Assembly (NCBI GenBank): GCA_030620115.1
Contig: JAUXFG010000001.1
Location: 9,677 to 73,676 of the forward strand
Length of the DNA: 64,000 nucleotides
DNA from: Candidatus Fermentibacterota bacterium
Lineage (GTDB): Bacteria > JAFGKV01
Direction: 5' to 3'
Translations under genes and position numbers: made by a program
Part shown: positions 6,644 through 49,442 of the stretch, piece after piece
Layout: each line of letters begins with the position of its first letter
Position numbering within the stretch: position 1 is the first letter of the stretch
The notes under the pieces: generated by a model
What the model was told of the DNA's origin: nothing
The model's input: the letters and a program-made list of their open reading frames with translations, nothing else
Databases searched by the model: none

Positions 6644-6663
6644 GGGCTGAACGTGCAGATTTT

Positions 6664-6740
<77 letters not shown>

Positions 6741-6788
6741 GATATCAGCAGAGCGGACAGATTGCTTGTAGGCACATTCTCGCGACGC

Positions 6789-15182: not shown

Positions 15183-15415
15183 TCGGACCAGAGATCAGAG
15201 AGTTTGACGCCCGCCTGAAGAGGCTGGAGGAAGTTGTCGCACAGCTTGAGCGAGGAGGAGTGCCACTCGAAGAATCGCTGAAGCTGTTCGAGGAAGGCAT
15301 GGGTCTTCTCAAGAAGCTTCAGCGTGTGCTGGAGCTGGTAGAAGTGAGGATCGATGAGCTGGTAGATCATGGGGAAGAGAAGCTGGGAACTAGACCTCTC
15401 GAAATCTCCGACTGA
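15149..15415 (+). CDS. xseB: exodeoxyribonuclease VII small subunit
   Basis: FDARLKRLEEVVAQLERGGVPLEESLKLFEEGMGL... in an 88-aa protein. Confidence 0.85.
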   Translation: MSGDKNNSTDIIGPEIREFDARLKRLEEVVAQLERGGVPLEESLKLFEEGMGLLKKLQRVLELVEVRIDELVDHGEEKLGTRPLEISD

Positions 15416-15440
15416 ACTCCTCGCACACATCGGGGCCCGG

Positions 15441-16295: not shown

Positions 16296-16300
16296 CGGAA

Positions 16301-18214: not shown

Positions 18215-19095
18215 GGAATAGTTTCTCCCTGGGGTTGGTGGTAAACCTCGCGCGCCCCGGGGCACTTGAGCTCCTGGGGGAGGTGCGGCGTTGGGCAGGA
18301 GCGAAGCACGCAGACCTCGTGCTGGGAGATGTGGGTTTCGGCTATCCCCCCGGCGATGAGAAGAAACTACCGGTGACGGAGATGTCGGGGTTCTGTGATG
18401 CAGTTCTCGTGATCGGTGGCGACGGGACGATACTGAGAGCCGCGCCGCTTGTGGCTCCGTTGGCTATTCCTCTGGTTGCGGTGAACACAGGTGACTTCGG
18501 CTTCTTGGCCACTGCCGAGAGCGAAGAGATCGAAGATCTTCTGGAGGAATTGCTGGCGGGGAGCCTCAGGGAGGAGTCTCGTTGCCTTCTCGATGCCCAT
18601 TTCGATGCGACTCATGGTTCCCGGGATGTCCTTGCATTGAATGACATCGTCATGCATAGAGGAGAAGAGGCCAAAATCGTGAAGCTCCAGGTCATGGTGG
18701 GAGATGAGTTGGTGAGTAGGTTTGCTGCCGATGGGGTCATTGTTTCGACACCCACCGGCTCAACCGCCTACAGTCTCTCGGCCGGTGGCCCGGTGTTTCA
18801 TCCCGGAGTCGACGCCTTGGCCATCACCCCACTCTGTGCGCACACGCTTGCCATGAGGCCGGCGGTGGTGTCGGGGAACGCGAAGATCACTCTGAAGGTT
18901 CTGGCCTACGAAGGCGGGGACGTTCTCGTGCTGGCTGATGGCCAGGTGGTGGCGAATCTTGGGATAGGCGATGAGGTGATCGTTGAGAGATCCCAACACC
19001 GGGTCCGTCTGCTCCTGAGGAAGGAGCGATCTTTTTACCAAGTACTGAGGGCGAAACTCGGATGGGCTGGAGCCCGGGATTTCGGGGAGATCTGA
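18211..19095 (+). CDS. nadK: NAD(+) kinase
   Basis: GGDGTILRAA and NDIVMHRG...DGVIVSTPTGSTAYSLSAGGP motifs. Overlaps the dxs stop (ATGA). Confidence 0.9.
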   Translation: MRNSFSLGLVVNLARPGALELLGEVRRWAGAKHADLVLGDVGFGYPPGDEKKLPVTEMSGFCDAVLVIGGDGTILRAAPLVAPLAIPLVAVNTGDFGFLATAESEEIEDLLEELLAGSLREESRCLLDAHFDATHGSRDVLALNDIVMHRGEEAKIVKLQVMVGDELVSRFAADGVIVSTPTGSTAYSLSAGGPVFHPGVDALAITPLCAHTLAMRPAVVSGNAKITLKVLAYEGGDVLVLADGQVVANLGIGDEVIVERSQHRVRLLLRKERSFYQVLRAKLGWAGARDFGEI

Positions 19096-19096
19096 C

Positions 19097-25911: not shown

Positions 25912-27036
25912 GTGAGCACACGCCGCGCAAGAATTGCCATCAAGAACCTCTGTTTCTCGATACTGCCTGCGCTTGTTCTTTTCGTGGGAGCGGAGGTGGC
26001 TCTTCGGCTTATTGCGCCTTTTTGGATGGAGTGTGTGCGGACCAGAGCTTGCCCGGCACATGATCACAGGCCTCTGAATCTTACCGAACAGGGACACAAT
26101 TTCAGTCTCGAGACGCATGAACCATTGTTCGTATACCATCCACGATTTTTCTGGTGGCCACGATCATATGTGCAAGGGACGTTCTGGTCGACGCCGGATG
26201 TGAAGACCAACAGGTTCGGGCTGCGAGATGATGAGGTCGACATGTCTCCCGGGAGGAGGAACATCCTGTTCGTTGGTGATTCGGTGGTGTGGGGTAGCCT
26301 GGTCTATCAGGAGGACCGATTCACGGAGAAGACGCACGCCATTCTTCAAAGCCAGCCTGAGTTCAGGGACGTCCAACTCATCAATGCAGGAGTTCTCGGC
26401 TTCTCCACCTTTCAGGTACGCACCTACCTCAAGGAAGAGGGGCTGGACCGATTCAAGCCTGAGGTTGTGGTCATTTGCGCGGGGATAAACGACAACTGGC
26501 CGTTCTCCATGTGCGACCGGGAGATCTATGCTCGTAATATGCGACTTGGCAACAGACTGAGGCGGTGGTGCATGCGGTCGGACCTCTTTCTATTGCTCGA
26601 CAGGTACGTCAATGAGCTGGCGTTGTGGGCGCGAACCGGGGAGAACCCTCAAGGATTCACATTCCTGTTCCGGGAATCGTCAGGGAAGAAGACGGTTCTT
26701 CGGAATCAACCCCATCAGACCGAGCAGAACTTGAGGGAGGCCGGCGCACTGATCGAAGCGTCGGGAGCCCGGGTCGTCATCGTGTTGGAGGACATACGCG
26801 CCCGACAACCCGGAGGTTTCGCTACGCGAAGCTTCAAGGCCGCAAGATCGAGGATCAGGCAGCTTGCCGCGCATGCGGGGTGGCCGGTCATCGAAATCGC
26901 CAAGCTCGGTCAACCCCCGATCGAGATGAAGGTGAATGACTATCTCATTGATTTTTGTCATTTACACCCGAGAGGGCACGAAGTGGTGGGGAGATGGCTG
27001 GCGGATGTGTTGACGGGAATGCTGCAAGAAGACTAA
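25912..27036 (+). CDS. membrane-anchored SGNH/GDSL-family hydrolase (paralog 1)
   Basis: N-terminal TM helix, a WMECVRTRACP motif, block I FVGDSVVWG, block III GINDN and block V DFCHLHPRGHE. GTG start with an AGGAGG RBS. Confidence 0.7.
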   Translation: MSTRRARIAIKNLCFSILPALVLFVGAEVALRLIAPFWMECVRTRACPAHDHRPLNLTEQGHNFSLETHEPLFVYHPRFFWWPRSYVQGTFWSTPDVKTNRFGLRDDEVDMSPGRRNILFVGDSVVWGSLVYQEDRFTEKTHAILQSQPEFRDVQLINAGVLGFSTFQVRTYLKEEGLDRFKPEVVVICAGINDNWPFSMCDREIYARNMRLGNRLRRWCMRSDLFLLLDRYVNELALWARTGENPQGFTFLFRESSGKKTVLRNQPHQTEQNLREAGALIEASGARVVIVLEDIRARQPGGFATRSFKAARSRIRQLAAHAGWPVIEIAKLGQPPIEMKVNDYLIDFCHLHPRGHEVVGRWLADVLTGMLQED

Positions 27037-27390
27037 CCCGAACTTCTCACCAGTTTTTGGCTGCAGTCCCGCGTCCGACGCGGGACAGTGGATACGCCTG
27101 CGGGGTCCTCAGTCGCAAGCCGAGCCCGGACCTCTCACCAGCTTCCTACCCCGCTGGAAGCGGGGCCGATATGGCTCTGTCTGCTGCGTTACGCTCCGTC
27201 AGCTTCCTCGATCCCGCGTCGGCCGCGGGACAGAGGATACGCCTGCGGGAGCCTCGGTCGCAAGCCTTGCAGCCACAACCATTTCTTCTGTCTCGCCACG
27301 GAAGCCGGCGAGAAGTCCGAGCTAACATTCAGAACCATTTCGGCCGTTTCGCTTCGAAAGCCGGTGAGAAGTCCGGCTTATCGAAGCTCC
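27034..27390. repeat. family R repeats, two tandem core copies in inverted orientation relative to copy 1
   Basis: 27067-27120 is the exact reverse complement of 25808-25861. A second core (CCCGCGtcggcCGCGGG) lies at ~27216. Arms ttctcacc / ggtgagaag are present. Confidence 0.7.
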
Positions 27391-29309
27391 GGGCGAAGCA
27401 AGAGCACCTGAATGTCGTGCTGGGCATCCTGGTACCCCACCTCAAGCTCTTCCCCTCTCATCATATCAAGACCTTTGCACACCCCCGGTTCACACCGTCT
27501 GAAGAGCTCATCAACATAGATGGCCTTGACATCTCTTGTCAGAAGCCACCCGAGCAGGTCGCGGCGCGATGTGAGTTTGCGGGGTTCGGGAAATATGGGG
27601 ATATAATCCAAGCGTGCCATGATCACGGGAGCCGGAGAGTAGGAAGCCACATTCGAACCTGCAGGGAGATGGCTGGCCAAGAAGAGAGCCGCCTGCTCGT
27701 TGGGAGCTGTGCCCAGCTCCGGGATGGAAGGGATGGAGCAGCGAGCTGGGCGGCAGAATAGGCTTTGGAGGGTAAGCAGGAATACTATGCCATAGGAGCC
27801 AATCGAGGTTCTGACTGAGTGTCTCAACGTGCCCCCATACCGATCCGATAGAATCCATATGATCGACAAGCCAAGCAGGAAGACCACGGCCGGGGCGAGC
27901 AGGCGCTTATTGACAGTGCCGAGTGCATAGATGATCAGTCCGAGCATTACGGCGCATGCTATTACCCGCTCTCGTCTCTGGTTTATTGTGGCGAATAGCG
28001 CGGCCGAACCAATGGCAGCAAGCACAAATACGATGGCGCAAGGCAGAAGGAAGTACCCCTCCCTGAAGAAGGTCACCAGGTAGGCCAGGAGATGCAAGGG
28101 CCACGCGAGCATGATGAGGAGAACGGACCATGCCCGTCTTCTGGCGAGTGCGACGATTCCGCGGACTGCGAGCAGGAGGAGCAGCGCGCCTGTTCCGTGG
28201 AGCCCCTTGCCATAGGCCACGAAAGCTTGAGCCGGCATCTGGAGGATTACATGAGTGATACGTTGAAGAAACGCCCTTGGATTCCTCCGGATGGCCTTGA
28301 GTACGGAATAGTTGTTATCCTCAGGCGTACCATAGAGATCCCGCGCCAAGGCATATCCCTCTACATAGGGATTCTCCGCCTCGCAGAGAGGACCATAAGC
28401 GACCCCTTGGCCTTGCTCAAACGCGTCGTAGAGTCTACGCTTGGTACCAACCTCGAACTCTCCCGAAAGCAACCCGACGAGCGCGATATATCCCCCAACT
28501 ATCACGGCGAATGGCGCCACGCATGCGGCGACTGATCCGAGCGTTTTCCCCCGTGCGCCATGCAGGAGAATCACAAGTATCAGTGCGGTGATGAAGAGAA
28601 GCAGCCCGTCATTCCGACAAAGTGCCGCCATGGAGATGAATACCGCGCAGATAACGAGGTGTTTCCTCAAGCCGGTGGCGGAGAACCTCAGAAACTGCCA
28701 GAGCGCAAAGGCGGAGAGAGCCGCGAAGAGCGCATCGCTGGAGTTATCCAGGATGCTCAAGAGACTGGGCGTTACCAAAAGAAGGAGCAAAGGCATGAGG
28801 GGCGATACGATGTGCTTGAGTTCGCGGCTGATGACGTAGGTGCCAAACCAAAGGAAGATGAAGATGATGATGCGGCCAAGCGCATAGGCATGCATGAGCC
28901 AGAATGGCGATTCTTGAAAAGGGATGATCGCCAGCGCCCAGAACGCGGCGACAAGCGGGTTGGATGCGTAGGTGGGGAATTCCCCGTGGAGCAGCAGCCG
29001 GCCATTGTTGAGATAGTAGGCTTCATCGAACGACCAGATGTCGGTCAGAGTGGGAAAGAAAGCGCGGAAGGTGAGAGCAAAACCTAAGGCGATGAGCAGA
29101 GCGACGCATATGGGTGGGCAGTCCCCGGGGATGAAAACATTCGATTTCCCCGGCGTTTGGCTATCGGGGATCCTACTTGATGTTCGCGTCTTGTTAGGCA
29201 AATCTATGGCCTCGCGACAGGGCTCCCTGCCATGGAAACGGGGAGCTCCGGATCTTGTCCGTGGCGAACAGGCGTCCGAGCCAACTGGGCAACCCCGAGA
29301 TCTTTCCAC
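27378..29309 (-). CDS. GT-C fold glycosyltransferase (PMT/ArnT, GT39/GT83-like) polytopic membrane protein
   Basis: At least 12 TM helices and a DE motif in the first extracytoplasmic loop (IWSFDEAYYLNNG). The track start at 29309 overlaps paralog 2, so the real start is probably an internal non-ATG codon. Confidence 0.55.
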   Translation of the reverse strand: MERSRGCPVGSDACSPRTRSGAPRFHGREPCREAIDLPNKTRTSSRIPDSQTPGKSNVFIPGDCPPICVALLIALGFALTFRAFFPTLTDIWSFDEAYYLNNGRLLLHGEFPTYASNPLVAAFWALAIIPFQESPFWLMHAYALGRIIIFIFLWFGTYVISRELKHIVSPLMPLLLLLVTPSLLSILDNSSDALFAALSAFALWQFLRFSATGLRKHLVICAVFISMAALCRNDGLLLFITALILVILLHGARGKTLGSVAACVAPFAVIVGGYIALVGLLSGEFEVGTKRRLYDAFEQGQGVAYGPLCEAENPYVEGYALARDLYGTPEDNNYSVLKAIRRNPRAFLQRITHVILQMPAQAFVAYGKGLHGTGALLLLLAVRGIVALARRRAWSVLLIMLAWPLHLLAYLVTFFREGYFLLPCAIVFVLAAIGSAALFATINQRRERVIACAVMLGLIIYALGTVNKRLLAPAVVFLLGLSIIWILSDRYGGTLRHSVRTSIGSYGIVFLLTLQSLFCRPARCSIPSIPELGTAPNEQAALFLASHLPAGSNVASYSPAPVIMARLDYIPIFPEPRKLTSRRDLLGWLLTRDVKAIYVDELFRRCEPGVCKGLDMMRGEELEVGYQDAQHDIQVLLLRPELR

Positions 29310-30451
29310 TCCCCAAGGTCAGCCCCGACCAATAGCTTCTCCAGTACCTCAGCGAGCCGCGTCGCCACGATATCATGGCCCTTTGGATGGAGATGGCAGA
29401 AATCAAGGAGGTACTCGTGTGGAACCAAGGACAATGGTGAGCTACTAAGATCCTCAATCTTGATGATTCCCCATCCTCGGTTGGTTGCCAGTCGCTCCAC
29501 TTTTGAGCGTCCGGCTCTGAATCCTTCTGGATCCCAGTTCTTTGGATGCTCGCTACGAGTGTGTTCCAGAATGATCACGACTCGCGCTCCCTGGACCTCG
29601 GCCGAATTGCCGATTTCTCTGAAATTCTCTTCCGTCTCGGAAGGCGAGTCTCGATGAATTCTCACAGGATTCCATCTCTCACGAAACAGAAAAGAAAGCC
29701 CTTCAGGATTGCGGCCAGTTCTCCGCCATTCCAGTAGTTCGCCGACGTACCGGTTGAGGAGAAGGAATACGTTTGAATGCATGAGGAAATGCTTCACACG
29801 ATATGGAGGCGACATATTCGTGCGGAAGCTCTCCCTGTCGCTCCTGTTAAACAGCCAGCTATCGTTGATGCCAGCACAGACAACAACAATCTCGGGTCTG
29901 AACCTGGTGAGGCCAACTCTCTTGAGGTATTGGAGTACCTGAAAAGATGAGAACCCGACTATGCCGGCATTGATGAGCTGTACATCTTCGAGGCCCGAGC
30001 GTCTTGAAAGGAGTTTCTGCGCTTTGTTGGAGAAACGTTCAGCCTCGAACACGAGACTCCCCCACATGACGGAGTCTCCCAGGAGGAGAACATTCCTTCT
30101 TGCCTGGGACTCGTCGATTTCGTTTCCGCGGAGCCCCAGACTGTTTGTCCGCACCTCGGGCGTTGCGCATACTGTGCCACGAATATGGGGCCGTGGCCAC
30201 CAGAACAGCCTTGGATGATAGATGGACAATGGTTCTCCCGTCTCAATCACGAAATTGCCGCGGTGCTGGGTGAAGAATACCGGATTGAAGTCATGCGGGG
30301 GGCATGCTCTCGTCCGCAGACATTCCATCCATGGTGGCGACACGATGCGGAGCCCAATCTCCATTCCAAGGAGGAGCAGCACAGCGGGAGCAACCGAAAA
30401 AAGGAGTTTCTTCCATTGCACAAGCTTCGCTACATTATTCCTATTGCTCAC
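29204..30451 (-). CDS. membrane-anchored SGNH/GDSL-family hydrolase (paralog 2)
   Basis: WMECLRTRACP, LLLGDSVMWG, GINDS and DFCHLHPKGHD. It has the same architecture as paralog 1 plus a ~40-aa C-terminal extension. Confidence 0.7.
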   Translation of the reverse strand: MSNRNNVAKLVQWKKLLFSVAPAVLLLLGMEIGLRIVSPPWMECLRTRACPPHDFNPVFFTQHRGNFVIETGEPLSIYHPRLFWWPRPHIRGTVCATPEVRTNSLGLRGNEIDESQARRNVLLLGDSVMWGSLVFEAERFSNKAQKLLSRRSGLEDVQLINAGIVGFSSFQVLQYLKRVGLTRFRPEIVVVCAGINDSWLFNRSDRESFRTNMSPPYRVKHFLMHSNVFLLLNRYVGELLEWRRTGRNPEGLSFLFRERWNPVRIHRDSPSETEENFREIGNSAEVQGARVVIILEHTRSEHPKNWDPEGFRAGRSKVERLATNRGWGIIKIEDLSSSPLSLVPHEYLLDFCHLHPKGHDIVATRLAEVLEKLLVGADLGEWKDLGVAQLARTPVRHGQDPELPVSMAGSPVARP

Positions 30452-30542: not shown

Positions 30543-31673
30543 CTATGTGCCCGCCACAGGTAATGAGAGCGTATCGTCATTTGTACTTGTCATCAGCTCG
30601 TCAATCCATCCCTCTTCGATGATTCGGGTTGCGACACACTCAGCGACGCGGCGGTTTCCTTTTGCATTGAAGTGACACTTGTCTTGTGGATAGTTCTTCA
30701 TGATCCCATCTTCAGGCGCCGTGCGGTACATGTCTCGAATATCGACGAGGACCAGGGAGTCTTCTCGCTCGAGACGCTGGAGCATGGCATTGTAGAAGTC
30801 AAGTGCAAGATCATGTCTTGCATGCTGCCGCGTGATGGCCAGGAATCGTGCTCCCCTGTGTTCACAGTAGGCTTTGGCTTTCTTGATGTTCTCGAAGTAC
30901 TGGGGCGGATCGACCCGCCGTGGATAATCGAGTGAGTGCTCCCAGGGCCTTTCCTCTATGGTACTGTTAGGGACCAAGTAGAGGGTACGTGTCCATCGGA
31001 TGAAGGCACTCTTGTCAAGGAGATGGCGCAGCGTGTACATGGGACCGGCATACAGTCGTGCGAATATGCGATCGCAATAGCCGTTGGCTGGCGCATTGTC
31101 GTTACTGCCTCCCCAGTACACCACGATGTCAGGCTTCACGCGGTCGAATTCCCCGCGCAGGATTTTCAGTGTCTGGTATGAACTATGGGCGGGAATGCCA
31201 AGATTGAAGGAGGCCATTCTCTGGGTGTCATATCGCTCGGCCACCAATGAAACCAGTACATCAGGGAAGCTCTTGCCCGGTGGTGACGACCAGCCCAATA
31301 CCATGGAGTCGCCCAAGAATATCCATCGAATCGCGTCGACTCCCTGATACCGCCAGGGTGTAGTGCGAAAACCCCAGGAGTCGATTCTGATCGTTTTTTT
31401 CTCGCCGGGTTTCATGCCGGCTTTGAGCTCGATATCGGGCTTGAGGGTCCAGAAGTAGCGCTGATGCCAGACAATCTTGCCCCGTACACCGGCGAGTCCC
31501 CGGCACCGAAATACCACTGGGTCGTGCAATGCCATTCCCGGGAAATGGAATGCCCGCGCCACCAACTCTCCTGCAAGAAAAAGCACCGGGAGCGCCAAGG
31601 CGACTATGGTGAAAAATCTGGTGATTCGCCACATCCTCATATTCCTTTTCCGGGGAAGAATCCGCGCTGCCAC
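30543..31673 (-). CDS. membrane-anchored SGNH/GDSL-family hydrolase (paralog 3, divergent)
   Basis: IFLGDSMVLGWS, WGGSNDN and DKCHFNAKGN blocks, with an N-terminal TM helix. The start may be an internal Met (MRMWRIT...). Confidence 0.6.
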   Translation of the reverse strand: MAARILPRKRNMRMWRITRFFTIVALALPVLFLAGELVARAFHFPGMALHDPVVFRCRGLAGVRGKIVWHQRYFWTLKPDIELKAGMKPGEKKTIRIDSWGFRTTPWRYQGVDAIRWIFLGDSMVLGWSSPPGKSFPDVLVSLVAERYDTQRMASFNLGIPAHSSYQTLKILRGEFDRVKPDIVVYWGGSNDNAPANGYCDRIFARLYAGPMYTLRHLLDKSAFIRWTRTLYLVPNSTIEERPWEHSLDYPRRVDPPQYFENIKKAKAYCEHRGARFLAITRQHARHDLALDFYNAMLQRLEREDSLVLVDIRDMYRTAPEDGIMKNYPQDKCHFNAKGNRRVAECVATRIIEEGWIDELMTSTNDDTLSLPVAGT

Positions 31674-38593: not shown

Positions 38594-39775
38594 ATGGCCG
38601 GGGCTGGCGGGAAACAAGCACTGCGCATCCTTATGCTGGCGCCCTGCCCATTCCCCACCAGCCAAGGATCGCAGACGTTGATCAGGCAGCTGGCAGCCGG
38701 CCTCCAACATCGTGGACATGAAGTCCACCTGGTGACCTATCACCATGGTGAGTACAGGGAGGAATTCGCCTTCAGCGTGCATAGGACGCCCTATTTCCCC
38801 GGCACAAGCAGGCTCAAGGCGGGGCCGAGCCTTGGCAAGCTCGTGCTTGATCTTTTCTTTTGGTACATTGCAGTGAGAGTGGCGGGAGAGATCAATCCCC
38901 ATCTTATTCACGGGCACAACTACGAGGGCGCCATTCTTGGCCATTTGGTGGCCAAGAAACGCGGCATTCCACTGATATATCACACACATAACGTGATGCA
39001 TGAAGAGCTGCCCACCTACTTCCATCAGAGGCCTCTTCGATTTTTGGCGCGGAAGGTCGGTCTATGTTTGGATAATTGGATACCGCGGCACGCCGATCAA
39101 ATCATTGCCATCAACAGGGCGCTGAGGCGGGAGCTCGTGACCATGGGGATTGATCCTGAACGGATACGGATCGTACCTCCAGGAATCTGGCCGGCGGAGT
39201 GGGAGAGAGCCGTGGAGCCCCGGCAAGAGCCTTTGGTCGTCTACACCGGCAATCTGGACAACTATCAGAACCTTTCCCTGCTGATTGAGGGTATAAGGCT
39301 GGTGAAACAGAGGATTCCTGGAGCCACGCTGAAGATCGTAAGCCATGAGACCAGACCGAGGTTGGAACGAGAAGCTCGTAAGCTGGGCATGGAAGAAGCC
39401 GTAGAATTCATCAAAGTCGATACGTTCAGTCAGGTCAAGGCGTGGATACTGCGGGCTGCGGTGGTGGTCTGCCCGCGGATACCAACGTGTGGTTACCCCA
39501 TAAAGCTTGTGAACTACCTTGCTGCGGGTAGACCGGTGGTGGTCAGCGAGGCTTCCGCAGACGGCATTGTGGATGGGGAAAGCGGGCTGGTGGTGGAAAC
39601 AGGGAATCCCGCCGCGTATGCAGAGGGTATCATCAAGCTCCTCACCGATCGAGCACTTGCGACTCGCATTGCCCGGGAAGGGAGGCGCTTGGCATCGGAG
39701 AAGCATTCATGGGATCGATCTTTGGCTGCCATCGAGGCTTCGTATCGAGCGGCATTAACCGGGGTCAAATCTTGA
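38594..39775 (+). CDS. glycosyltransferase family 4 (GT-B)
   Basis: ILMLAPCPFP N-terminal domain and the EX7E-like C-terminal region (ESGLVVETGNPAAYAEGI). The start is taken at the internal Met; the track begins at 38474. Confidence 0.75.
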   Translation: MAGAGGKQALRILMLAPCPFPTSQGSQTLIRQLAAGLQHRGHEVHLVTYHHGEYREEFAFSVHRTPYFPGTSRLKAGPSLGKLVLDLFFWYIAVRVAGEINPHLIHGHNYEGAILGHLVAKKRGIPLIYHTHNVMHEELPTYFHQRPLRFLARKVGLCLDNWIPRHADQIIAINRALRRELVTMGIDPERIRIVPPGIWPAEWERAVEPRQEPLVVYTGNLDNYQNLSLLIEGIRLVKQRIPGATLKIVSHETRPRLEREARKLGMEEAVEFIKVDTFSQVKAWILRAAVVVCPRIPTCGYPIKLVNYLAAGRPVVVSEASADGIVDGESGLVVETGNPAAYAEGIIKLLTDRALATRIAREGRRLASEKHSWDRSLAAIEASYRAALTGVKS

Positions 39776-39786
39776 CGGGCATCCTC

Positions 39787-42700
39787 ATGGCCGGGCTTGT
39801 GCTGGCAGTCATCGGAGCACCTTCGCATGGGGCTGAGGTCGAGGTTCTCAGATCAGACCAGGCGAGCATCAGGTTGCTGATCAGGCCCTCAGTGGATGAT
39901 CGGGTATGGAATGGATGGGTCGGCCTCCCTCCCGGAGCCTCGGTGGAAGAGGTGAGCGTTCGAACACAAGGGCGTGTGCGCCCGGTACCATGGGAGCTGG
40001 GCCGCGAGGTCACCACAAGTCCTCAAATCACCGTTGGTCCCGTGGGTTTCATAAGGTTCCATAGGGCTTGTCCCCTTCGGGTCGAGACAGGAATGGCTAC
40101 CCAGGACGGGGTGGCAGGAATTCCAGAGGTCCTATTGGTGGAGATCCTGCTTTCGCCAGGATCTGCCAAGGCGCGGAAACGAAATGTCGGATTTCAGAAT
40201 GTATTGTCGAATTTGTTCGTGAACTGGCAAAGCGCCCAGCATTGGGCCGAGCAGATGGACGGTCCGCCGCTTCCGCCTCCAGTGCCGGCCCCGAGCATCC
40301 GTATCCGAGTAAGAGAGGAGGGGCTCTACAGGATTACTGCAGAGGATCTTCCCGATATGCCTGGGGATGCGGATCCCCGGATGTTTTCTCTTTGGAACCG
40401 AGGGAGCTATGTTCCTTTGCGGGTGGTAGTGCAGCAGCCGGACACCGTATGGAAAGATGGTGACTGGATCGAGTTCTATGCCCACGGCACCCGGCGGGAA
40501 GATCCACAGGGACGGTGGACTCCGGTGGAAAGCAAGTATGGCCTCGATAACCCCTACTATCTCGTGTGGGACCAGGTGGATCCTCCAAGAATCCTCGATG
40601 TGTCTTCAGAGCCTACAGGCGGCCCGGCCGCTACGTATCATTGGTGGGTATGTCACCGTGAGGTGAACACGAATTCCTCACTATCGGGCCATGAGGGAGC
40701 CATCGACGATGAATGGTACTGGGGCGGACAGCTCGGCCCCGGCCAGATTTCCAAGCAGTTTTCTCTGCCAGATCTGGCGCGGGAAGTGGCGGATGGGGTG
40801 ATCCGCGCCAGATTCCAATCCATGAGCCTTTCCGAGTCTGAGATGCATCTTCTGGTGAATGGCGCCATGGTCGCAGAAGGGTCGTGGAACGGCTTCGGCG
40901 CACAGCTCTTGGAAGGTCAGGGGGTGCCGCTTGATGTGGGTACGAATCAGCTCGTTATGGATTTCTCGGGAGATGCGTACTCACGAGTTCATCTCGACTG
41001 GTTCGCAATTCAATACCCTCGAGAGTATGTCATGTCAGGGGGGCAGGCCGCGTTCGGACCATCTGCCGATGATCGCCCAGAGTACGAGATTTCTGGTTTG
41101 GAGCCTGGGACCAAGACGGATATCTTTGAGATCAGCTCAGGCCTCAGATTCATGGATTTCCACCACGAGGCGGACCAAGAAGGGGCAATCCGGTTCAGGG
41201 CTAATCTCCCGGATAGTGCGACCTTCTTGGTGGTGACGAACAGCGGTTGGCTTACTTCCCTTGATCTTCCCGACATGCCTACGTGGATCGAGCCACATCC
41301 GGCCGTGGCTGATGAGGATCGAGAAGGTAGCTATTTGATTGTGTATCCGTCTGATTTCTTAGAGGCGGCCAGCGGCCTGAGAGATCACCATCTGGACGCC
41401 GGAGATATCGAAAGTGCAGAGATGGTGGATGTGCGCCATATCTGGGAGGAGTTCTCATACGGCCTGCCGGACCCGCGAGCCTTGCGCTCATTCCTGCAAT
41501 GGACATTGGCCAATTGGAGCGATCCGCCGGAGTTCGTGCTGCTCTTTGGGGACGGCACGTGGGACTACAACGGCTACATGAACCAACACGCCAGCGTGAA
41601 TCTCGTGCCCAGCTATGGCAATCCCGCGTCTGATAATTTCTACGCGAGCCTCAACGATACGAGCTACTTCCCCGATCTACACGTCGGACGTGTGCCGGCG
41701 GTTGATGCCACTCAAGCCTGGAATGCTTTCCAAAAGATACGCAACTACCGTGCCTCTCCAGAGCCGTCGTTGTGGCGCAAGCTTGTTCTTTTTGTCAATG
41801 GCGGGGGCACACAGGATGAGTTTGACTACTTCGCGGCGTGGACATCGATCACCTCCCAGCTTGTCGTCGCACCGCCGCCGGTCCTGGGCGCCACATCGAT
41901 CATTGCTAAGGACCAGGAAGAATACTGGATGGGCTACTACAATAAGAGCATAGCCGCGGCGGTAGACTCAGGCTGTCTGATCATGAACTTCTTCGGCCAC
42001 GCCGCAACGCAGACCTGGGACTTTATGTTCGAGTCAGATGATGTTGATTCACTTCTCAACGGGGATCGTACCCCCTTGGTGCTCAGCCCTACATGCTTCA
42101 CCGGCGATTTCGCGGATCCACGCCAGGTGGTCTTCGCGGAACACTTCCTCAGATTGGACGAACCGGAGCACGGCGCAATCGGCTTTTTTGGAAGCTCCGG
42201 CACCGCGTACCAGAACAAAGGCGGGGTCTACGCCTATCGGATCATGGAGTCCATCTTTTGCAAGGGAGATCCCCGAGTCGGGCCGGCAATCACCTGGGCG
42301 AAGCTCAACGGATATCCCTACACGAGCCCTGAGGACTCGATCATGGCCACGGTATTCAGCCTGCTGGGCGATCCGCTCCTCTCCCTCGTGCTGCCCGAAG
42401 CGCCGGACCTTCACATCGGTCCGGAGAGGGTTACCGTGCAACCAGAGGAGCCGGCAGTGGGGGATAGCGTGAGGCTTCTTGTGAGCGTGCTCAATGAAGG
42501 GGTGTCATGGGAGGATGAATACCGGGTGACTGTCCACTGCGAAGGCCAGGAGCTGGCTTCAGGATTTGCCCGGGCCGATTCGCTGGAGAATCGCCTTTCC
42601 TTGTCCTGGCCTGCCCCTGCCCAACCGGGAAGCCAGGAGATCGAGATCCATGTGGACCCGGATCAGAGTGTAGAAGAGGAAGACAGGGAGGACAATACCA

Positions 42701-45700
42701 CTGCGTTGACCATAACCTACCTCAAGCGGCGCCCTGTGGTCCTCTTGCCTCTCAGCGATGCCATGGTTCCGGGAGCTCTTGCGGAATTTTTCATCACCGC
42801 AGTCTCGACGCAACCCCATGGGTTCCAGATTGCGCTTTGCGATACCTTTGGTTCCTCTGTGATCGACTCCTCCGGTCCCGTGTCGCCTGAGGCAGGCCTT
42901 GTTTCGTGGACATGGTCCTCGCCTAGTCCAGGGACCTACTGTTGGAGGGCGAGGGGCCAGGGCGGCGCATGGTCTTTTCCCAGGTGGTTCACTACTGGAG
43001 TGGAAGCAGCGGGATGGGGCCAGTTCCTTCCCGCGCAGCTGACCGGCGGGGTCATGGAAGACTGCGAAGTCACCGATCTAGGGCTTGGGTTGTACGCCAG
43101 GGTCAACATATCTCGGGATTTTGCACTGTTGTCAGAAGGCGCCACTGTTCCTGAGGTCTCGACCCACAACCCCGACGCCTGCGGCCCGGAGAATCTCATT
43201 GGAGGCCAGGTGGGGAACACCGATTGGGGCGGTTCCTTTTACTTCCGCCGGCTCGATGAGAACCAGTATGCGGTGGTGGACCTGGGAGAGCCCAGGATGA
43301 TAATAAAGATCGCCAGCGCCCATGAAGGGGATACACTCACTGACCGATCCGTATGGTCCCATTTCGGTATCGAAAGCTCGTTGAATGATGTCGATTACAA
43401 GCTGTGGGGCAATACGCCTGACTACAGCGACTCAGGCTATGGGCCATGGATTTCGAGTAACATGGCCTATGAGAAGCCGTATCCGATCTCGGTTCGGTAT
43501 ATCAAGTTCAGCTATGGACAATGTCATCCCATAGGCACAATACGGCCGGGCTCACGGGTCTATGAAGTCTATGCATATGCCGCGCTGTACCCTGATTCAG
43601 GCTCGGTCTTTTCCCCGCCCCTCGGTCCTTCTGATCAGTGGGGCAGGCTCACGGCCTTGGGCGATGTTCCAGGAGGGACCAACACGACGATCGAGGTCTA
43701 TCTGGAAGATGAGAATGGAACGTGGGAGCTGGGCAGAACTATGTCCTTGGGAGCGGATCAGGCCCTTGATTGGATCGGAGATGAGTACCGGCGCGTGAAG
43801 CTTCGTGGCGTACTCACCAGCGAGTCTATGGATGTGACGCCCAGGCTTATGAGCTGGAGCGTGGAGTATCGCTCGATCCCGGATCTTGCGACCATGCACG
43901 ATACGCTTCTCGTAGTTCCTGAGCTGCCGGAGCCTGGCAGCACGGCCCAGATTCGAGCCATAGTGATCAATGCCGGTTCAGAACCAGTTTCGGGAGCCTC
44001 GTACCGTCTCGATGCGCAGCTTGATGATGATGCGCCCACGACTCTGGAGTCGGGCGTGCTGGGATGGCTTACCCCGGGATTGCCCGAGAGTCTTTCGACC
44101 CCATGGGTTGCGGAGGGAGGCGTGACGCGTTTCACCCTGGTGCTCGACCCTGATGAAAAGATCACCGAGGCATGGGAAGAGAACAATACGGTGTATGGAG
44201 AGGCCCGTGTACTGGGCAATCTTGCCTGGATAGATAGTATCGAGGTCAGCCCTCCGGTTCCCAGTCCCAGAGAATCGCTTTCTGTAGAAGCATGGGTCGT
44301 CAATAATGGGGTTCTTGCTTTGGGCGAGAGTTGGGCACGGTGTTTCTGGGTTGGGTCGGACAGCGGAGAGATAGTCGCCATTCCCCCTCTTGCGCGTGAT
44401 GAACGAGCAAGGCTTATCTGGTCCATGGTGGCGCCCGACAGCGTGGGGTCCTATCAGCTCGCCTGTGAGCTCGATCCGGATTCCCTGGTTCGGGAAGCCT
44501 GGGAGGATGATAATATCATCTTGCTCCCTATCGAGGTTGTACAAGGCCCTGACCCGGCTCTTTTCGATGTAGATGTCTACTGTGTGACGCCCGCGGTGGG
44601 CGATCCTGTGGAGGTCGTTCTGGGATTGACGAACTTCGGTGGCCGGGATACTGAAGAGTTCCTCGTTCTTGGCCTCGAACAAGGGGTGTGGCGCGACAGT
44701 CTCTTCATTGATGGGCTCGCCGGCGCGGAGAGTACGGTGGTCTCTTTGTGGTGGCCCACCGGCGATGCGGCGCGGAGCCACTTCCTGGAGTTCCATGTCG
44801 ATCCTGACAGCTTTGTCGTTGATTGTGACCGGGCCAACAATGTCTTGACCATGGAGCTTATCACGGTTCTTCTCCCCGATCTCTACGCCGCAGGCGATAG
44901 TACGTGGCCCGCTTTTCCCATTGCAGGTGACCCCATGACCCTGCATACAGAAGTCAGGAATCGCGGCATCGTGCCTGCAGGGGGCTTCGAGGTATCCGTG
45001 CAATGGCCCGATGGGGAACAAGAGACGCAACGCGTTGATTCGCTGGGGGGCCAAGAGACGGTTCAGTTCCAGTGGGATTGGATACCCGAGACATCCGGTA
45101 GCGGTAGCGTGATCATGACCATTGATAGTGCCGGTGAGGTGGGAGAGGCATGTGAAACCAACAATGAGACGGCAATCCAGCTCCAAATAGGGCAGCCGTG
45201 GGACTTGGCTGTAGCCTCAACGGACATTCAGAAGCAAGATCCCACGGCTTCGTTCGTGGCCTGGGATTCATTGTTTCTCCACATCATCGTGCACAATGTG
45301 GGAGACGAGGCATCGCCTTCAGTGCCTGTCGAGCTTTTCGACGGCATCCCGGAATCGGACGGAACGCTTCTCAAAGCGGAGGACATGGCCTTGGCGGCAG
45401 GCGCTTCCGATACCTTGGAGGCGGTGTGGCCCGAAGGTGCTTTTCCCGGCACACATCTTCTGGTGGCGGTGCTGAACCGGCAGAATGAGATCGAAGAGTT
45501 CAATACTTCGAACAACCGGGCGAGCCGGGAGGTGGTGGTGTTGGGAGACACGATCCCTCCAGGCGTGGCGGTCAGGCCGCCGTGGCCGGGATTCGCCCAG
45601 GGCGGGTTTCTCGCTCAGGGAGACACCATTACGGCATACGGATGGGATGAAGCCAGCGGGATGAATCGCCTGGAGATTTTTCTGGATGATGCGGACATCA

Positions 45701-46155
45701 CCGAGGCATTCATCTCAGAGCCGGACTCGAGTCAGGGGATTCCAGGGATCAGAACGATTTTCCCTATTGTGGGGGGGCCTGGTGAACATCGATTGAGAGC
45801 CCGGGCTGTGGATAATGCGGGGCTATGGACAGAGGCTGAAATCCGATATACGCTTTCCCAAACCGCACTGGTACGAAATGTGGCTGCATTCCCGAGCCCC
45901 GCGTCAGGTCCTACCCGGGTCACGGCGGAACTCTCACGGCCGGGCCAGATGATTATCAGCCTCTATACCACAGGGGGCCGGTTCATCCGGCGCCTCCAGG
46001 GCGAAGCTCTCTATCCGGGCAGGGCAGGCCTGGAGTGGGACCTTCTGGACCAGGATGGTGACCGCGTGGCGAATGGCGTGTACCTTGTAAGCTTCAAATT
46101 GCAGACTGATGAAGCCAGCACGGAGGCACTAGGGAAACTCGTGGTGATGAGGTAG
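39787..46155 (+). CDS. giant secreted peptidase C25 (gingipain-like) family protein with multiple CARDB/Ig-like repeats and a C-terminal FlgD-Ig / T9SS-type sorting domain
   Basis: Signal peptide (MAGLVLAVIGAPSHGAEV). C25 core at ~41.3-42.4 kb with candidate catalytic His (NFFGHAATQTW) and Cys (SPTCFTGDFADP). At least 5 repeats ending in DN/NN motifs (REDNTTA, EDDNII, RANNVL, ETNNET, NTSNNR). The C-terminus PSPASGPTRVTAELSRPGQMIISLYTTGGRFIRRLQ...VYLVSFKLQTD...GKLVVMR resembles a Por/T9SS CTD. Confidence 0.8.
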   Translation: MAGLVLAVIGAPSHGAEVEVLRSDQASIRLLIRPSVDDRVWNGWVGLPPGASVEEVSVRTQGRVRPVPWELGREVTTSPQITVGPVGFIRFHRACPLRVETGMATQDGVAGIPEVLLVEILLSPGSAKARKRNVGFQNVLSNLFVNWQSAQHWAEQMDGPPLPPPVPAPSIRIRVREEGLYRITAEDLPDMPGDADPRMFSLWNRGSYVPLRVVVQQPDTVWKDGDWIEFYAHGTRREDPQGRWTPVESKYGLDNPYYLVWDQVDPPRILDVSSEPTGGPAATYHWWVCHREVNTNSSLSGHEGAIDDEWYWGGQLGPGQISKQFSLPDLAREVADGVIRARFQSMSLSESEMHLLVNGAMVAEGSWNGFGAQLLEGQGVPLDVGTNQLVMDFSGDAYSRVHLDWFAIQYPREYVMSGGQAAFGPSADDRPEYEISGLEPGTKTDIFEISSGLRFMDFHHEADQEGAIRFRANLPDSATFLVVTNSGWLTSLDLPDMPTWIEPHPAVADEDREGSYLIVYPSDFLEAASGLRDHHLDAGDIESAEMVDVRHIWEEFSYGLPDPRALRSFLQWTLANWSDPPEFVLLFGDGTWDYNGYMNQHASVNLVPSYGNPASDNFYASLNDTSYFPDLHVGRVPAVDATQAWNAFQKIRNYRASPEPSLWRKLVLFVNGGGTQDEFDYFAAWTSITSQLVVAPPPVLGATSIIAKDQEEYWMGYYNKSIAAAVDSGCLIMNFFGHAATQTWDFMFESDDVDSLLNGDRTPLVLSPTCFTGDFADPRQVVFAEHFLRLDEPEHGAIGFFGSSGTAYQNKGGVYAYRIMESIFCKGDPRVGPAITWAKLNGYPYTSPEDSIMATVFSLLGDPLLSLVLPEAPDLHIGPERVTVQPEEPAVGDSVRLLVSVLNEGVSWEDEYRVTVHCEGQELASGFARADSLENRLSLSWPAPAQPGSQEIEIHVDPDQSVEEEDREDNTTALTITYLKRRPVVLLPLSDAMVPGALAEFFITAVSTQPHGFQIALCDTFGSSVIDSSGPVSPEAGLVSWTWSSPSPGTYCWRARGQGGAWSFPRWFTTGVEAAGWGQFLPAQLTGGVMEDCEVTDLGLGLYARVNISRDFALLSEGATVPEVSTHNPDACGPENLIGGQVGNTDWGGSFYFRRLDENQYAVVDLGEPRMIIKIASAHEGDTLTDRSVWSHFGIESSLNDVDYKLWGNTPDYSDSGYGPWISSNMAYEKPYPISVRYIKFSYGQCHPIGTIRPGSRVYEVYAYAALYPDSGSVFSPPLGPSDQWGRLTALGDVPGGTNTTIEVYLEDENGTWELGRTMSLGADQALDWIGDEYRRVKLRGVLTSESMDVTPRLMSWSVEYRSIPDLATMHDTLLVVPELPEPGSTAQIRAIVINAGSEPVSGASYRLDAQLDDDAPTTLESGVLGWLTPGLPESLSTPWVAEGGVTRFTLVLDPDEKITEAWEENNTVYGEARVLGNLAWIDSIEVSPPVPSPRESLSVEAWVVNNGVLALGESWARCFWVGSDSGEIVAIPPLARDERARLIWSMVAPDSVGSYQLACELDPDSLVREAWEDDNIILLPIEVVQGPDPALFDVDVYCVTPAVGDPVEVVLGLTNFGGRDTEEFLVLGLEQGVWRDSLFIDGLAGAESTVVSLWWPTGDAARSHFLEFHVDPDSFVVDCDRANNVLTMELITVLLPDLYAAGDSTWPAFPIAGDPMTLHTEVRNRGIVPAGGFEVSVQWPDGEQETQRVDSLGGQETVQFQWDWIPETSGSGSVIMTIDSAGEVGEACETNNETAIQLQIGQPWDLAVASTDIQKQDPTASFVAWDSLFLHIIVHNVGDEASPSVPVELFDGIPESDGTLLKAEDMALAAGASDTLEAVWPEGAFPGTHLLVAVLNRQNEIEEFNTSNNRASREVVVLGDTIPPGVAVRPPWPGFAQGGFLAQGDTITAYGWDEASGMNRLEIFLDDADITEAFISEPDSSQGIPGIRTIFPIVGGPGEHRLRARAVDNAGLWTEAEIRYTLSQTALVRNVAAFPSPASGPTRVTAELSRPGQMIISLYTTGGRFIRRLQGEALYPGRAGLEWDLLDQDGDRVANGVYLVSFKLQTDEASTEALGKLVVMR

Positions 46156-46718: not shown

Positions 46719-46807
46719 CCCGCACCACGGTGCGCAGTTGATCGTGGGTTATGCGTGGTGGACCGTCTTGCGTGGGCATTGGACTCGGTCAGGCATCTCG
46801 GCCAGAG

Positions 46808-46852
46808 TAAGAGAGATTCTTCGGTCGCTCCGCTTCCTCAGAATGACACACA
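46808..46852. repeat. family H repeat, half copy (right arm, reverse orientation)
   Basis: gagattcttcggtcgctccgcttcctcagaatgacac is the reverse complement of the right arm of the hairpin element. Confidence 0.5.
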
Positions 46853-47239
46853 GCATCCAGTTTCCTCAATTCGCAATCCAGCATTTTGCTTTTCGTAACC
46901 GTTGACGGAGATATTTCAGGAAAAGCCCGGAAGTGCTTTACACTTTCGGAACCCTCCTTGCAATGACTGAGGCCCCGGTGGTCATCGCGAGCGGTAGCGC
47001 GGCGATCTCAGTTGAGGGCATGAGATTGCTTCGTCGCGGACTCAATCCTGAGCTTGCCGAAGGGCTCCTCGCAATGACTGATGGTGGGGCTACGGTTCCG
47101 GGATCTCTCTATGGGATTTTATATTCCTATCGTGAGCCGTAGCGTCAGGCCGAGACCGTAAAACGAGAAAATGAAACATCCCAATCCCCGCTCAGCAGCT
47201 TATCAGCCTGTCCTGAGCAAAGTCGAAGGGCTCAATAAC

Positions 47240-48457
47240 TCACGAGTTTCCTGCATTCCCCGTGGCGAATACCAGCCAGAGCAAGAGGAGTACTCCCGAG
47301 AAACGATGGAGCTCTCTGATCCAAGGGACAAGTTCGTCGAATATGGAGGTGATGGAAGGGATCAGAAGCAAGACCCCAGTGGCCAAGAGGAGGCTCAGGA
47401 TGACCGCCCGAAAGAAGCGCGCGGAAAGAAATTTCGGATGGGAAATCCCTCTGGGGAGCAGGAATCGGGCAGCGCATACTGCAAGGAGAATGACGCCGGC
47501 AAGCAGATGAACGTGACAGAGTGAAGAAAGTGCCCGGCCGCCACCAAAGTAGATACCCGCTCCGGTGATCAAAAGGAGGAGCATGGCGATTCCACGGATC
47601 CTCGCGGCGGGCCCTGGTGCGAATATTTGTATAAAACCATTGGCGCCGGTTCGAAGCACCCGTCGGAGATGCAGTGCAATGAGGAGGAGCAGGACCGCGA
47701 TGACGAAGATCAGCTCCGCGGCGAGACCATATCCCCATCCGGGCACTCTTCTTCCCGTCCAATGGTCAATCTGTTGGCCAAAGGTGGCGTCGGCCAACCG
47801 TCTGGAATGGCAAATCCTGCAATCTCGGAGGGATGAGGGCGCCGGCAGCACAAAATGCTCCGATCCGCCTGTCTCCAGGGGGAAGTGGCATCGCGTACAT
47901 GACACTTGCCTGAGATGTAACCCTGCTCCAGGAAAGAGCAAATGGCTCTCATTCAGCTCTCTCATTGGGTGACAACGGATGCAGGACTCATTGGTCTGTT
48001 GAGGTGGTGCACATCGTGAGATTGATGAGGAATGTGGCTCGTGGCAGGCGCCGCACGAGAAGTTCCCCATTCGGGTGACGTGAATATCCCCGCCTTGCGC
48101 AGCAAGATACTCGTTGAATGGCAGATGACTGCAAGGGGCCGGCTCTGTTCCGTGGCATGAACCGCAGGAGAGTGACGTGGAAGCGCCTGGAGGGAGGTGG
48201 GGTACGTGGGCGAATGATTCGCCATGGCACTGTATACAGCTCAAAGAACCATGATCACTCTCAAGGAATCCCTTCTCCGACAGGGGGACGGAGAATCCGA
48301 CGCCCATGCTATCCGCCTTCACGAGAGAGACCCGCTCGTGACACCCGAGACATGATGCGCTCTCGGGGGGAAGGCTCTCTCGGTTCGCTGCATTGATGAG
48401 CAGCGCGAGGATAACAAGCAAAATCGCCATCGATTCGGGACCTCCATGAGGGATCAT
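47240..48457 (-). CDS. multiheme (7x CxxCH) c-type cytochrome fused to a C-terminal polytopic membrane (putative di-heme b-type) domain; CbcL-like
   Basis: Signal peptide. Seven CxxCH motifs: CLGCH, CIQCH, CGSCH, CGACH, CIRCH, CTRCH, CRICH. Then ~5 TM helices with conserved His residues (ALHLRR, LCHVHLLAG, RELHRF). Confidence 0.7.
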   Translation of the reverse strand: MIPHGGPESMAILLVILALLINAANRESLPPESASCLGCHERVSLVKADSMGVGFSVPLSEKGFLESDHGSLSCIQCHGESFAHVPHLPPGASTSLSCGSCHGTEPAPCSHLPFNEYLAAQGGDIHVTRMGNFSCGACHEPHSSSISRCAPPQQTNESCIRCHPMRELNESHLLFPGAGLHLRQVSCTRCHFPLETGGSEHFVLPAPSSLRDCRICHSRRLADATFGQQIDHWTGRRVPGWGYGLAAELIFVIAVLLLLIALHLRRVLRTGANGFIQIFAPGPAARIRGIAMLLLLITGAGIYFGGGRALSSLCHVHLLAGVILLAVCAARFLLPRGISHPKFLSARFFRAVILSLLLATGVLLLIPSITSIFDELVPWIRELHRFSGVLLLLWLVFATGNAGNS

Positions 48458-49022
48458 GGTGTTCTATGATCTACAGATGATAGGCAACTTGTGGGTTCGA
48501 GTCCAGTTTTTGATGCCTCTGCGGGTTGCCAATCGAAGAAGAATGATGCATATTGTTTCCAGGGCAGATAGCCCTGCTGAATGCACCATGGCAGGAGGAT
48601 GGAAAGCTTTGCGCCACTTGTTGGGCTGCCATTCTATTCGCCGGTTCGGATATCCCGTACGTGGGCGATCTCGAAGAGGTAGCACCGACCTCCCACCGTT
48701 CAATTCCCTTGAGATACTTAACCCCCAGAGGTCAGAAGTCAGAAATCAGAGGTCAGCCGGACAACTTCGTCGGCAGCTCTCTCGCGAGCTTCTCCGCGTG
48801 ATGAGCTTCCACTCCCGCGCAGTACGCGGGACAGAAAGCGTAGATGTCTCGAATCAAGACTCTGATCTTTGTGTCCCGCACTGGTTCCATGTGTCCTTCA
48901 TGGGGTTGATAGGGGAAGAAAGCACGGTTCTGAGGCGCAGCTGAAGATCATGAGAAGGGATTGCCGAGGATTGGTGCAAAGCGGTCTTGTTGCATCATGA
49001 CACCGACGCTGGAGGTGATGTA

Positions 49023-49442
49023 ATGCCAAAACGTTGCGCTGTTTGGATCGATCATTCAAATGCCTTTATTGTGAAGTTCGCCAACGGTGGCGAACCTGAA
49101 GTGGAGAAGTTGGAATCAGGTATCGGAGCCATACACAAGAGTACCGGTGGGGCAAGAGCAAAGGAACCATATCGTCACGGTTCGGCGAGGAGACATTCCG
49201 AAGAGGAGCGGAGGAACCATCAGCTCACGAAGTTCTACGGCCAGATAGTATCACGGATCAAGGATGCCCCGAAGGTTCTGCTGCTTGGCCCAGGTTTGGC
49301 AAAGCAGGAGCTTGGGAAAGCCATCCAGGACTTACCTGGCGCTCACAAACCAGGTTACGAAATCCATCCAGCCGAGAAGATGTCCGATCGTCAGCTAGTG
49401 GCCCTGGTCCGGAAAGAGCTGAATGTACCGGCGCCTCTCTAG
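49023..49442 (+). CDS. Host_attach (PF10116) / bacterial eRF1-like (baeRF) family protein
   Basis: 139 aa. CAVWIDHSNAFIVKF...RHSEEERRNHQLTKFYGQIV...KVLLLGPGLAKQELGKAI...KMSDRQLVALVRKEL resembles the Host_attach family. The ATG is preceded by a GGAGGTGA SD. Confidence 0.4.
   Translation: MPKRCAVWIDHSNAFIVKFANGGEPEVEKLESGIGAIHKSTGGARAKEPYRHGSARRHSEEERRNHQLTKFYGQIVSRIKDAPKVLLLGPGLAKQELGKAIQDLPGAHKPGYEIHPAEKMSDRQLVALVRKELNVPAPL

Follow-up and report, generated by a model that had tools for sequence, protein, structure and literature searches.

A rare Fermentibacteria heptaheme cytochrome c fused to a five-helix membrane domain that may bind a single b heme

The window analyzed here, a whole stretch of 64,000 nucleotides from a Candidatus Fermentibacterota bacterium (contig JAUXFG010000001.1, assembly GCA_030620115.1, forward-strand positions 9,677 to 73,676), carries on its minus strand the gene for a membrane cytochrome. 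A program-made list of open reading frames (ORFs) gives an intact frame of 405 amino acids (aa) at 47240..48457 (-), which an earlier note on this DNA had read as a CbcL-like fusion of a periplasmic seven-heme cytochrome c with a histidine-containing polytopic membrane domain. Our results are consistent with a cytochrome restricted to this lineage, in which seven periplasmic c hemes may be combined with one b heme near the outer face of the membrane. The gene and its parts, all on the minus strand, are as follows, where TM stands for transmembrane helix and AF2 for AlphaFold2.

47240..48430 (-): most likely coding sequence of the heptaheme-c/five-TM protein, 396 aa plus stop, delimited by an upstream GGAGG, the lengths in its cluster and colinear orthologs; the mechanical ORF reaches an ATG at 48457.
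48362..48430 (-): hydrophobic segment at the N-terminus (signal or anchor), MAILLVILALLINAANRES, recognized from hydropathy and an AF2 helix at residues 7-26.
47770..48361 (-): heptaheme c domain, residues about 33-229, with seven CxxCH motifs and seven extra invariant His as candidate distal ligands.
47725..47769 (-): juxtamembrane motif W233-x2-R236-x2-P239-G240-W241, invariant columns directly before TM1 on the periplasmic side.
47648..47728 (-): TM1, linker helix, about residues 244-270, running from outside to inside, with invariant E248 near its periplasmic end and variable H263 near its cytoplasmic end.
47458..47611 (-): first hairpin, TM2 (283-304), IYFGxG loop and TM3 (310-333), from the alignment and AF2.
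47245..47437 (-): second hairpin, TM4 (341-368), acidic loop and TM5 (377-404), from the alignment and AF2.

The true start is probably M10, the ATG at 48430, which yields a 396-aa protein. This start is favored by a GGAGG sequence 9 nt upstream of the ATG and by members of 396 aa in the closest cluster. In five independent assemblies the ORF is unbroken and retains the fusion, from which purifying selection on it is evident.

The N-terminal part of the protein is a multiheme cytochrome c domain. The seven CxxCH motifs ascribed to it earlier lie within residues 36-213 (at 36, 74, 98, 135, 159, 187 and 213) and are invariant in the full-length orthologs, being unchanged across six sequences of 34-58% identity plus one at 90%. 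In the same alignment, seven further periplasmic histidines are invariant (H69, H87, H126, H142, H172, H181 and H201) and no methionine is. Seven is the exact number of distal ligands for seven bis-His c hemes, so that the c hemes would be self-sufficient and the histidines of the membrane domain surplus. Bis-His c hemes were likewise found in the periplasmic domain of CbcL (PMC9129911). As expected for a heme domain exported by the Sec system, the protein begins with the hydrophobic segment MAILLVILALLINAANRES, which would be cleaved upon export. Pfam matches were confined to residues 25-220 and were all to multiheme-c entries, namely Cytochrome_C7 (E 5.4e-10), MtrC/MtrF domain II/IV, Cytochrom_c3_2 and Paired_CXXCH_1, and NCBIfam gave only far-sub-threshold matches, to NrfH, DmsE and HmcA. 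The closest solved relative of the c domain is chain A of PDB 28pb ('Cytochrome c', 278 aa; E 3.4e-13 with the family profile, six CxxCH colinear). It shares with residues about 35-203 of the window protein the pattern H-x-(W/L)-(L/F)-P-x-A-x-L-H followed by CxxCH, but is a soluble c domain alone and is uninformative on the membrane domain. A full-length AF2 model was too poor for use (pLDDT, the predicted local distance difference test, 47), since the heme domain is not modelled without its cofactors.

The earlier count of about five TM helices behind the heme domain is borne out by hydropathy and AF2 secondary structure, which place five long helices at about residues 244-270, 283-304, 310-333, 341-368 and 377-404; the C-terminus ends a few residues past TM5. 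The heme domain is necessarily periplasmic and basic residues are concentrated in the loops TM1-2 and TM3-4, in line with the positive-inside rule, which indicates an N-out/C-in topology. Invariant residues are G282, P283, R288, G299, Y303, G305, G307, H317 and G321 in the first hairpin, and G361, L364, P367, T370, D374, P378, R381, H384, R385 and W394 in the second. Most invariant residues of the TM domain are found at the periplasmic face (W233, R236, P239, G240, W241, E248, Y303, G305, G307, P367, T370, D374, P378, R381 and R385).

All histidines that had been called conserved are present (H263 in ALHL, H315 and H317 in CHVHLLAG, H384 in RELHRF), but only H317 and H384 are invariant, and they are the sole invariant TM histidines (8-9 sequences, 34-58% identity). 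H315 is kept in 7/8 sequences, and H263 in 3/7 of those covering TM1. TM3 opens with an HxH motif whose second His is H317, and TM5 opens with an R-x-x-H-R-x-x-G motif that includes H384; each of these two histidines lies 7 residues from the periplasmic end of its helix in the AF2 model. Both point along the conserved face of their own helix, within 40 degrees (H317) and 18 degrees (H384) of its conservation moment. Given the topology, both are located on the periplasmic side. The positions where ligands of an inner heme would be expected lack His: TM2 has Ala, Gly or Val at R288+3 (A291 in the query), and the family alignment has no second His in TM5. The HydC/FdnI-like di-heme b domain proposed earlier therefore does not agree with the alignment, which offers two invariant TM histidines, both on the periplasmic side, and no His at cytoplasm-side ligand positions. 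Judging from these residues, H317 and H384 could bind one extra, non-covalent b heme near the outer face, not two; a second, cytoplasm-side heme is not expected, as the membrane domain has no further His pair.

In many related cytochromes (L003, L004, L005, L007, L002 and L015), a His is located near the cytoplasmic end of the TM helix that follows the heme domain, in a G-x-x-H-x-x-x-W-like context. This linker-helix His occurs in single-TM-anchored proteins and PF01292 fusions alike, and its equivalent in the query family is the variable H263.

The protein belongs to a very small family. Among 5.8 billion proteins, a word-indexed search returned two real homologs, P0001 (91% identity) and P0002 (42%), and a word-indexed profile search with the TM domain retrieved P0004 alone, adding nothing new. 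Exhaustive phmmer comparison of the membrane domain with 1.84 billion cluster representatives gave seven real matches, and thus about seven representatives exist among the 1.84 billion. Full-length orthologs lie on three genome or metagenome contigs, L001 (a metagenome-assembled genome named Candidatus Fermentibacteria; JAFGKV01), L008 and L009 (FWPV01), and a fourth locus with context, L025, was reached by contig look-up with P0006. All fully readable copies are fusions. Two apparently stand-alone TM-domain proteins, P0004 (182 aa, NCBI) and P0006 (150 aa, IMG), were rejected as such, being mis-called starts inside intact seven-CxxCH ORFs. The truncated calls correspond to L001 9986..11200 (NCBI JXA88_08905, P0004) and L025 about 6260..7447 (the IMG/ENA protein, P0006). 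These public gene calls hide the heme domain of two orthologs, and annotation-based surveys would miss such cytochromes.

The gene occupies the same syntenic position in the window, L001, L009 and L025, that is, in every copy with readable context. The block runs in the order MutS2, tetratricopeptide repeat protein, methyltransferase, peptidyl-prolyl isomerase, GT4, GNAT, flippase, a divergent 139-151-aa protein, the cytochrome, and a DnaJ-domain gene and/or an enzyme IIA (EIIA) gene. This shared block argues that the gene has been vertically inherited, and by their predicted products the neighbors of the cytochrome serve housekeeping and cell-envelope functions and do not make up a functional operon.

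We then compared the membrane domain with families of heme-b proteins. PF01292 matched three of nine family members (best E 0.012-0.015), colinearly, with TM2-5 on profile positions 16-155, and DUF4405 (PF14358) matched one of nine. The hairpin of P0002 (TM2-3) aligned weakly to DUF4405 and to TM1-2 of PF01292. Among 90 decoys shuffled within helices and loops, which retain composition and hydropathy layout, none (0/90) matched PF01292 or DUF4405. In hhalign, CbcL-type b domains were aligned at E 0.015-0.037, with TM2-3, or alternatively TM4-5, placed on the first hairpin of the b domain, and the RxxHRxxG of TM5, which resembles a TM2 motif of CbcL-type b domains, was paired with the heme-ligand motif of that TM2. 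Moreover, the first and second hairpins of the query family can be aligned with each other (P 0.004), and the membrane domain may thus consist of two tandem hairpins. On this sequence evidence, a very distant relationship of the domain to the cytochrome b561/DUF4405 hairpin fold is probable, without demonstrable membership. Small TM proteins of the DUF4405 type have been shown experimentally to bind heme b via conserved His (PMC11334425), which makes heme ligation by H317 and H384 plausible.

The closest precedent for such a fusion is the CbcL/MtoC/MtrH family, and the protein could be a true member of it, with a HydC/FdnI-like di-heme b domain passing electrons from one stacked b heme to the other. 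The two domains come in the same order, and the seven hemes and five TM helices are inside the reported ranges (3-23 CxxCH; mostly six TM helices, sometimes five or four; PMC6295460). At about 30% identity, the c domain resembles the N-termini of PF01292 fusions, and the sub-threshold PF01292 matches in three of nine members would also fit. These likenesses are set against the two invariant TM histidines, both periplasmic, where three conserved histidines are reported for the family (PMC6295460) and five are invariant in the CbcL-like b domains aligned here (H56, H95, H109, H203 and H218, of which four are at predicted ligand positions in TM1, TM2 and TM4). When cytochrome b families were compared as the earlier note had suggested, the query obtained no PF01292 score and the best relative, P0006, reached 15.5 bits against a cut-off of 30.1. 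A hidden Markov model (HMM) built from 38 CbcL-type b domains scored the query family no better than 2,700 segment-shuffled decoys. The protein of 396 aa is also under the reported member range (416-1034 aa). We consider membership in this di-heme family very unlikely.

A mechanism that accommodates these data can be proposed. A Sec-exported N-terminal domain would hold seven bis-His c hemes in the periplasm. TM1 would serve as the linker to a four-helix bundle of two similar hairpins, TM2-3 and TM4-5, each contributing one invariant His (H317 and H384) at equal depth near the periplasmic face and on a conserved helix face, and the two would ligate a single b heme close to heme c7. There would be no cytoplasm-side heme, and electrons could not cross the membrane via this protein; with neither an inner heme nor a transmembrane electron path, a membrane quinol oxidized at an outer-face site is the most plausible donor. 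This quinol site may be lined by the invariant E248, Y303, D374, R381 and R385 and the semi-conserved H315. The electrons would pass along the seven-heme wire to periplasmic or extracellular acceptors, providing an otherwise fermentative organism with an outlet for electrons, although the reverse direction of electron flow is equally possible. The motifs, topology, conservation, rarity and synteny are shown directly by the data, and heme b binding, the quinol donor and the direction of flow are inferred. We give about an even chance to a lineage-specific, Fermentibacteria-type bc membrane cytochrome of this kind, with seven periplasmic c hemes, one outer-face b heme at H317/H384 and quinol:periplasm electron transfer. 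More tentatively, the membrane part might be a previously undescribed, Fermentibacteria-restricted class of single-heme-b module that arose from a tandem-duplicated hairpin of the DUF4405/cytochrome-b561 type and was fused to the heptaheme wire, making the protein a minimal quinol:periplasm or extracellular electron-transfer protein; this account falls on the doubtful side of even.

Several results weigh against the bc-type proposal. The C-terminal 180 residues of the query had no match in Pfam (E <= 1), no similarity of the TM domain to heme-b families was statistically significant, and a profile search of the TM domain against PDB returned no matches. The three members matching PF01292 are mutually related and so are not independent trials. 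The hhalign alignments to CbcL-type b domains had probabilities below 3%, and a specific homology to the CbcL b domain was dropped, since the HMM described above did no better than decoys. The AF2 model that gave the helix positions is moderate only (pLDDT 68; pTM, the predicted template modelling score, 0.52), and the hit to FdnI at E 3 in Foldseek was unspecific. Among the larger ORFs scanned in the 64-kb window, no genes for quinone biosynthesis, cytochrome c maturation or partner cytochromes were found, and the earlier statement that respiratory genes are lacking nearby holds for the larger window ORFs scanned against Pfam. Finally, Fermentibacteria genomes have been described as devoid of respiration genes and their lifestyle as fermentative (PMC5030696, PMC5763382).

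In the main rival explanation, the five helices form a heme-free anchor or docking module whose conserved residues, the two histidines included, pack against the c domain, bind quinol beside heme c7 with no b heme involved, in an NrfH/CymA-like manner, or dock a membrane complex. Related heptaheme and larger modules end in a single C-terminal TM helix with no b domain (L011, L013, L017, L002 and L015), so that anchoring alone is common. The lack of a significant heme-b family match fits as well, and the last CxxCH is only about 27 residues before TM1, which could bring heme c7 to the membrane surface. Yet a mere anchor would have no need for four extra helices with 20 or so invariant residues, nor for two invariant histidines that lie equally deep and on the conserved faces of their helices. 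R381 and R385, moreover, flank H384, and Arg residues are typical heme-propionate partners, which would suit a heme at this site. We regard a heme-free module as somewhat unlikely.

Upstream of the cytochrome gene lies a divergent intergenic region, which presumably contains its promoter.

48458..48986 (no strand): divergent intergenic region of 529 bp between the cytochrome gene and a conserved neighbor gene for a 151-aa protein.

One weak sigma-70-like site lies at 48505-48477 (-); two sites were found against 1.2 expected, which is not significant. Scans for promoters and terminators gave nothing exceeding shuffled expectation. The divergent gene at 48987..49442 (+) encodes the 151-aa protein, which shares 57-58% identity with its counterparts in L001 and L009 and is matched in position by a 139-aa gene in L025; its earlier label as Host_attach/baeRF-like could not be verified, as it has no Pfam match even at E <= 10. 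On the other side, the gene that had been called PtsN-like does belong to EIIA_2 (PF00359, E 2.5e-20), the EIIA of phosphotransferase systems (PTS), but falls short of PtsN itself (TIGR01419; 52 bits, cut-off 138.7). Between the convergent EIIA and cytochrome genes is a 520-bp gap (46719..47239) with no detectable coding remnant and no Rfam match. The equivalent place in L001, L009 and L025 is filled by a DnaJ-domain gene of about 180 aa, which thus intervenes between cytochrome and EIIA in three of the four loci. From this comparison, the lineage of the window seems to have lost this gene or had it replaced. A functional link of the cytochrome to the EIIA or the 151-aa neighbor was considered and is unsupported, the adjacency being part of the MutS2-to-EIIA syntenic block in four loci.

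One more explanation assigns the protein a role in sensing redox state or metals, or in handling metals: the His pair with D374 and E248 would bind Fe, Cu or Zn and the hemes would reduce or sense it, along the lines proposed for FezC, a cytochrome associated with ferrosomes. Invariant acidic and His residues are indeed present at the periplasmic face, ferrosome proteins are among the relatives of DUF4405 (PMC11334425), and a PTS-EIIA regulator adjoins the gene in three of four loci with readable context. The protein has no cytoplasmic output or transport domain, however, and its C-terminus comes soon after TM5; the EIIA adjacency amounts to housekeeping synteny with the DnaJ-domain gene intervening in three genomes; and no metal-transport genes were found near the cytochrome. 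A sensing or metal-handling role is, in our estimate, highly improbable.

Elsewhere in the window, a gene at 39709..46155 (+), ending just upstream of the EIIA gene, encodes a 2148-aa protein with a gingipain-like Peptidase_C25 domain (E 1.9e-66) and six CARDB repeats. Three paralogous GDSL-lipase/acylhydrolase-like genes are located at 25912..27036 (+), 29204..30451 (-) and 30543..31673 (-), and amid them is a 643-aa membrane protein with a weak match to PMT_2 (glycosyltransferase; 27378..29309, -). A housekeeping run at 13905..20788 (+) comprises xseA (Exonuc_VII_L), an ispA-like polyprenyl synthetase, dxs, NAD kinase and a recN-like gene; the polyprenyl synthetase, being part of this run, is no evidence for quinone synthesis. 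The Rfam scan of the window identified four tRNAs only.

If the bc-type reading holds, its consequences would first concern how the lineage lives. Anaerobic digesters, methane seeps and sulfidic sediments are common habitats of Fermentibacteria (Hyd24-12), and since these are described as strictly fermentative without respiration genes, a conserved membrane multiheme cytochrome is mildly surprising. With such a cytochrome, they could unload reducing equivalents to the outside of the cytoplasm, with sulfur, iron, humics or partner cells as examples of recipients, and the role of Fermentibacteria in models of syntrophic communities would change. On the more tentative account of a single-heme-b module, members of a phylum called obligate fermenters would have a dedicated outlet to external acceptors or syntrophic partners.

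In comparison with known systems, the protein resembles NapC/NirT/NrfH/CymA and ImcH in being a membrane-anchored multiheme c protein, and these known proteins link the quinol pool to periplasmic acceptors. Their TM helices, however, are N-terminal and they use a membrane-surface c heme, whereas the membrane domain of the query is C-terminal. Correspondingly, the query scored 28.7 bits against a cut-off of 134.2 for NrfH (TIGR03153) and had no match to PF03264. ImcH also has seven heme motifs (PMC6295460), but in the query the order is reversed, hemes first and TM second, and all seven motifs are canonical CxxCH, ImcH being compared here by its description. With PF01292/FdnI/HydC and DUF4405 proteins, the query shares a four-helix core, hairpins of the TG...loop...H-x-x-(A/S)G type, the RxxHRxxG motif and His near the outer face. 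It differs from PF01292 and DUF4405 proteins in that all matches of its family are under the curated thresholds, R288-x-x-A replaces R-x-x-H, the last helix has no second His, and the domain looks like the first hairpin in two tandem copies and not like the canonical TM1-TM4 arrangement.

The comparison with CbcL is the closest. Like the CbcL/MtoC/MtrH proteins, the query has an N-terminal periplasmic bis-His multiheme c domain, a linker TM and a C-terminal His-bearing polytopic domain, with both heme count (7) and TM count (5) inside the published ranges, and by analogy it presumably also exchanges electrons between membrane and periplasm. The likeness to CbcL claimed earlier thus stands for the architecture and in part for the c domain (about 30% identity), and it does not extend to the membrane domain, with its missing Pfam match and unspecific PDB searches. 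In contrast to CbcL, the query has seven c hemes instead of nine and five TM helices instead of six, and its gene does not adjoin other cytochrome genes. Two invariant TM histidines, compared with three or four heme-b ligands in CbcL/MtoC/MtrH, would allow at most one b heme and no transmembrane heme pair. Judged by its sequence, the protein departs from that family in both hallmarks tested, a recognizable HydC/FdnI-like domain and a His set for two b hemes, and its family stays below the PF01292 threshold, whereas a control fusion, L003, passes it (47.7 bits against 30.1). L003 was among the true multiheme-c and PF01292 fusions, with 11 CxxCH and from Acidobacteriota, KSB1 and other lineages, that were retrieved by a pattern search seeded on the c domain. 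The query is about 30% identical to the first ~150 residues of these fusions, which indicates that the heme module is related, and the genuine CbcL-type architecture is very common (at least 6,842 matches). A metagenomic 11-heme cytochrome (L014 603..2429) has a multi-helix domain (RGRWAIHSLIF...) that appears NarI/HdrE-like by eye. Demonstrable membership in the CbcL family is lacking, but by analogy the protein plausibly works like a CbcL-type one, and a bundle with a periplasm-side b heme alone, if confirmed, would represent the CbcL design reduced to a minimum. Such a protein would illustrate how multiheme modules are recombined with different anchors, here a single TM, a PF01292 domain or, by inspection, a NarI-type-looking domain; as far as these alignments go, the heme module is one that is combined with several different membrane anchors.

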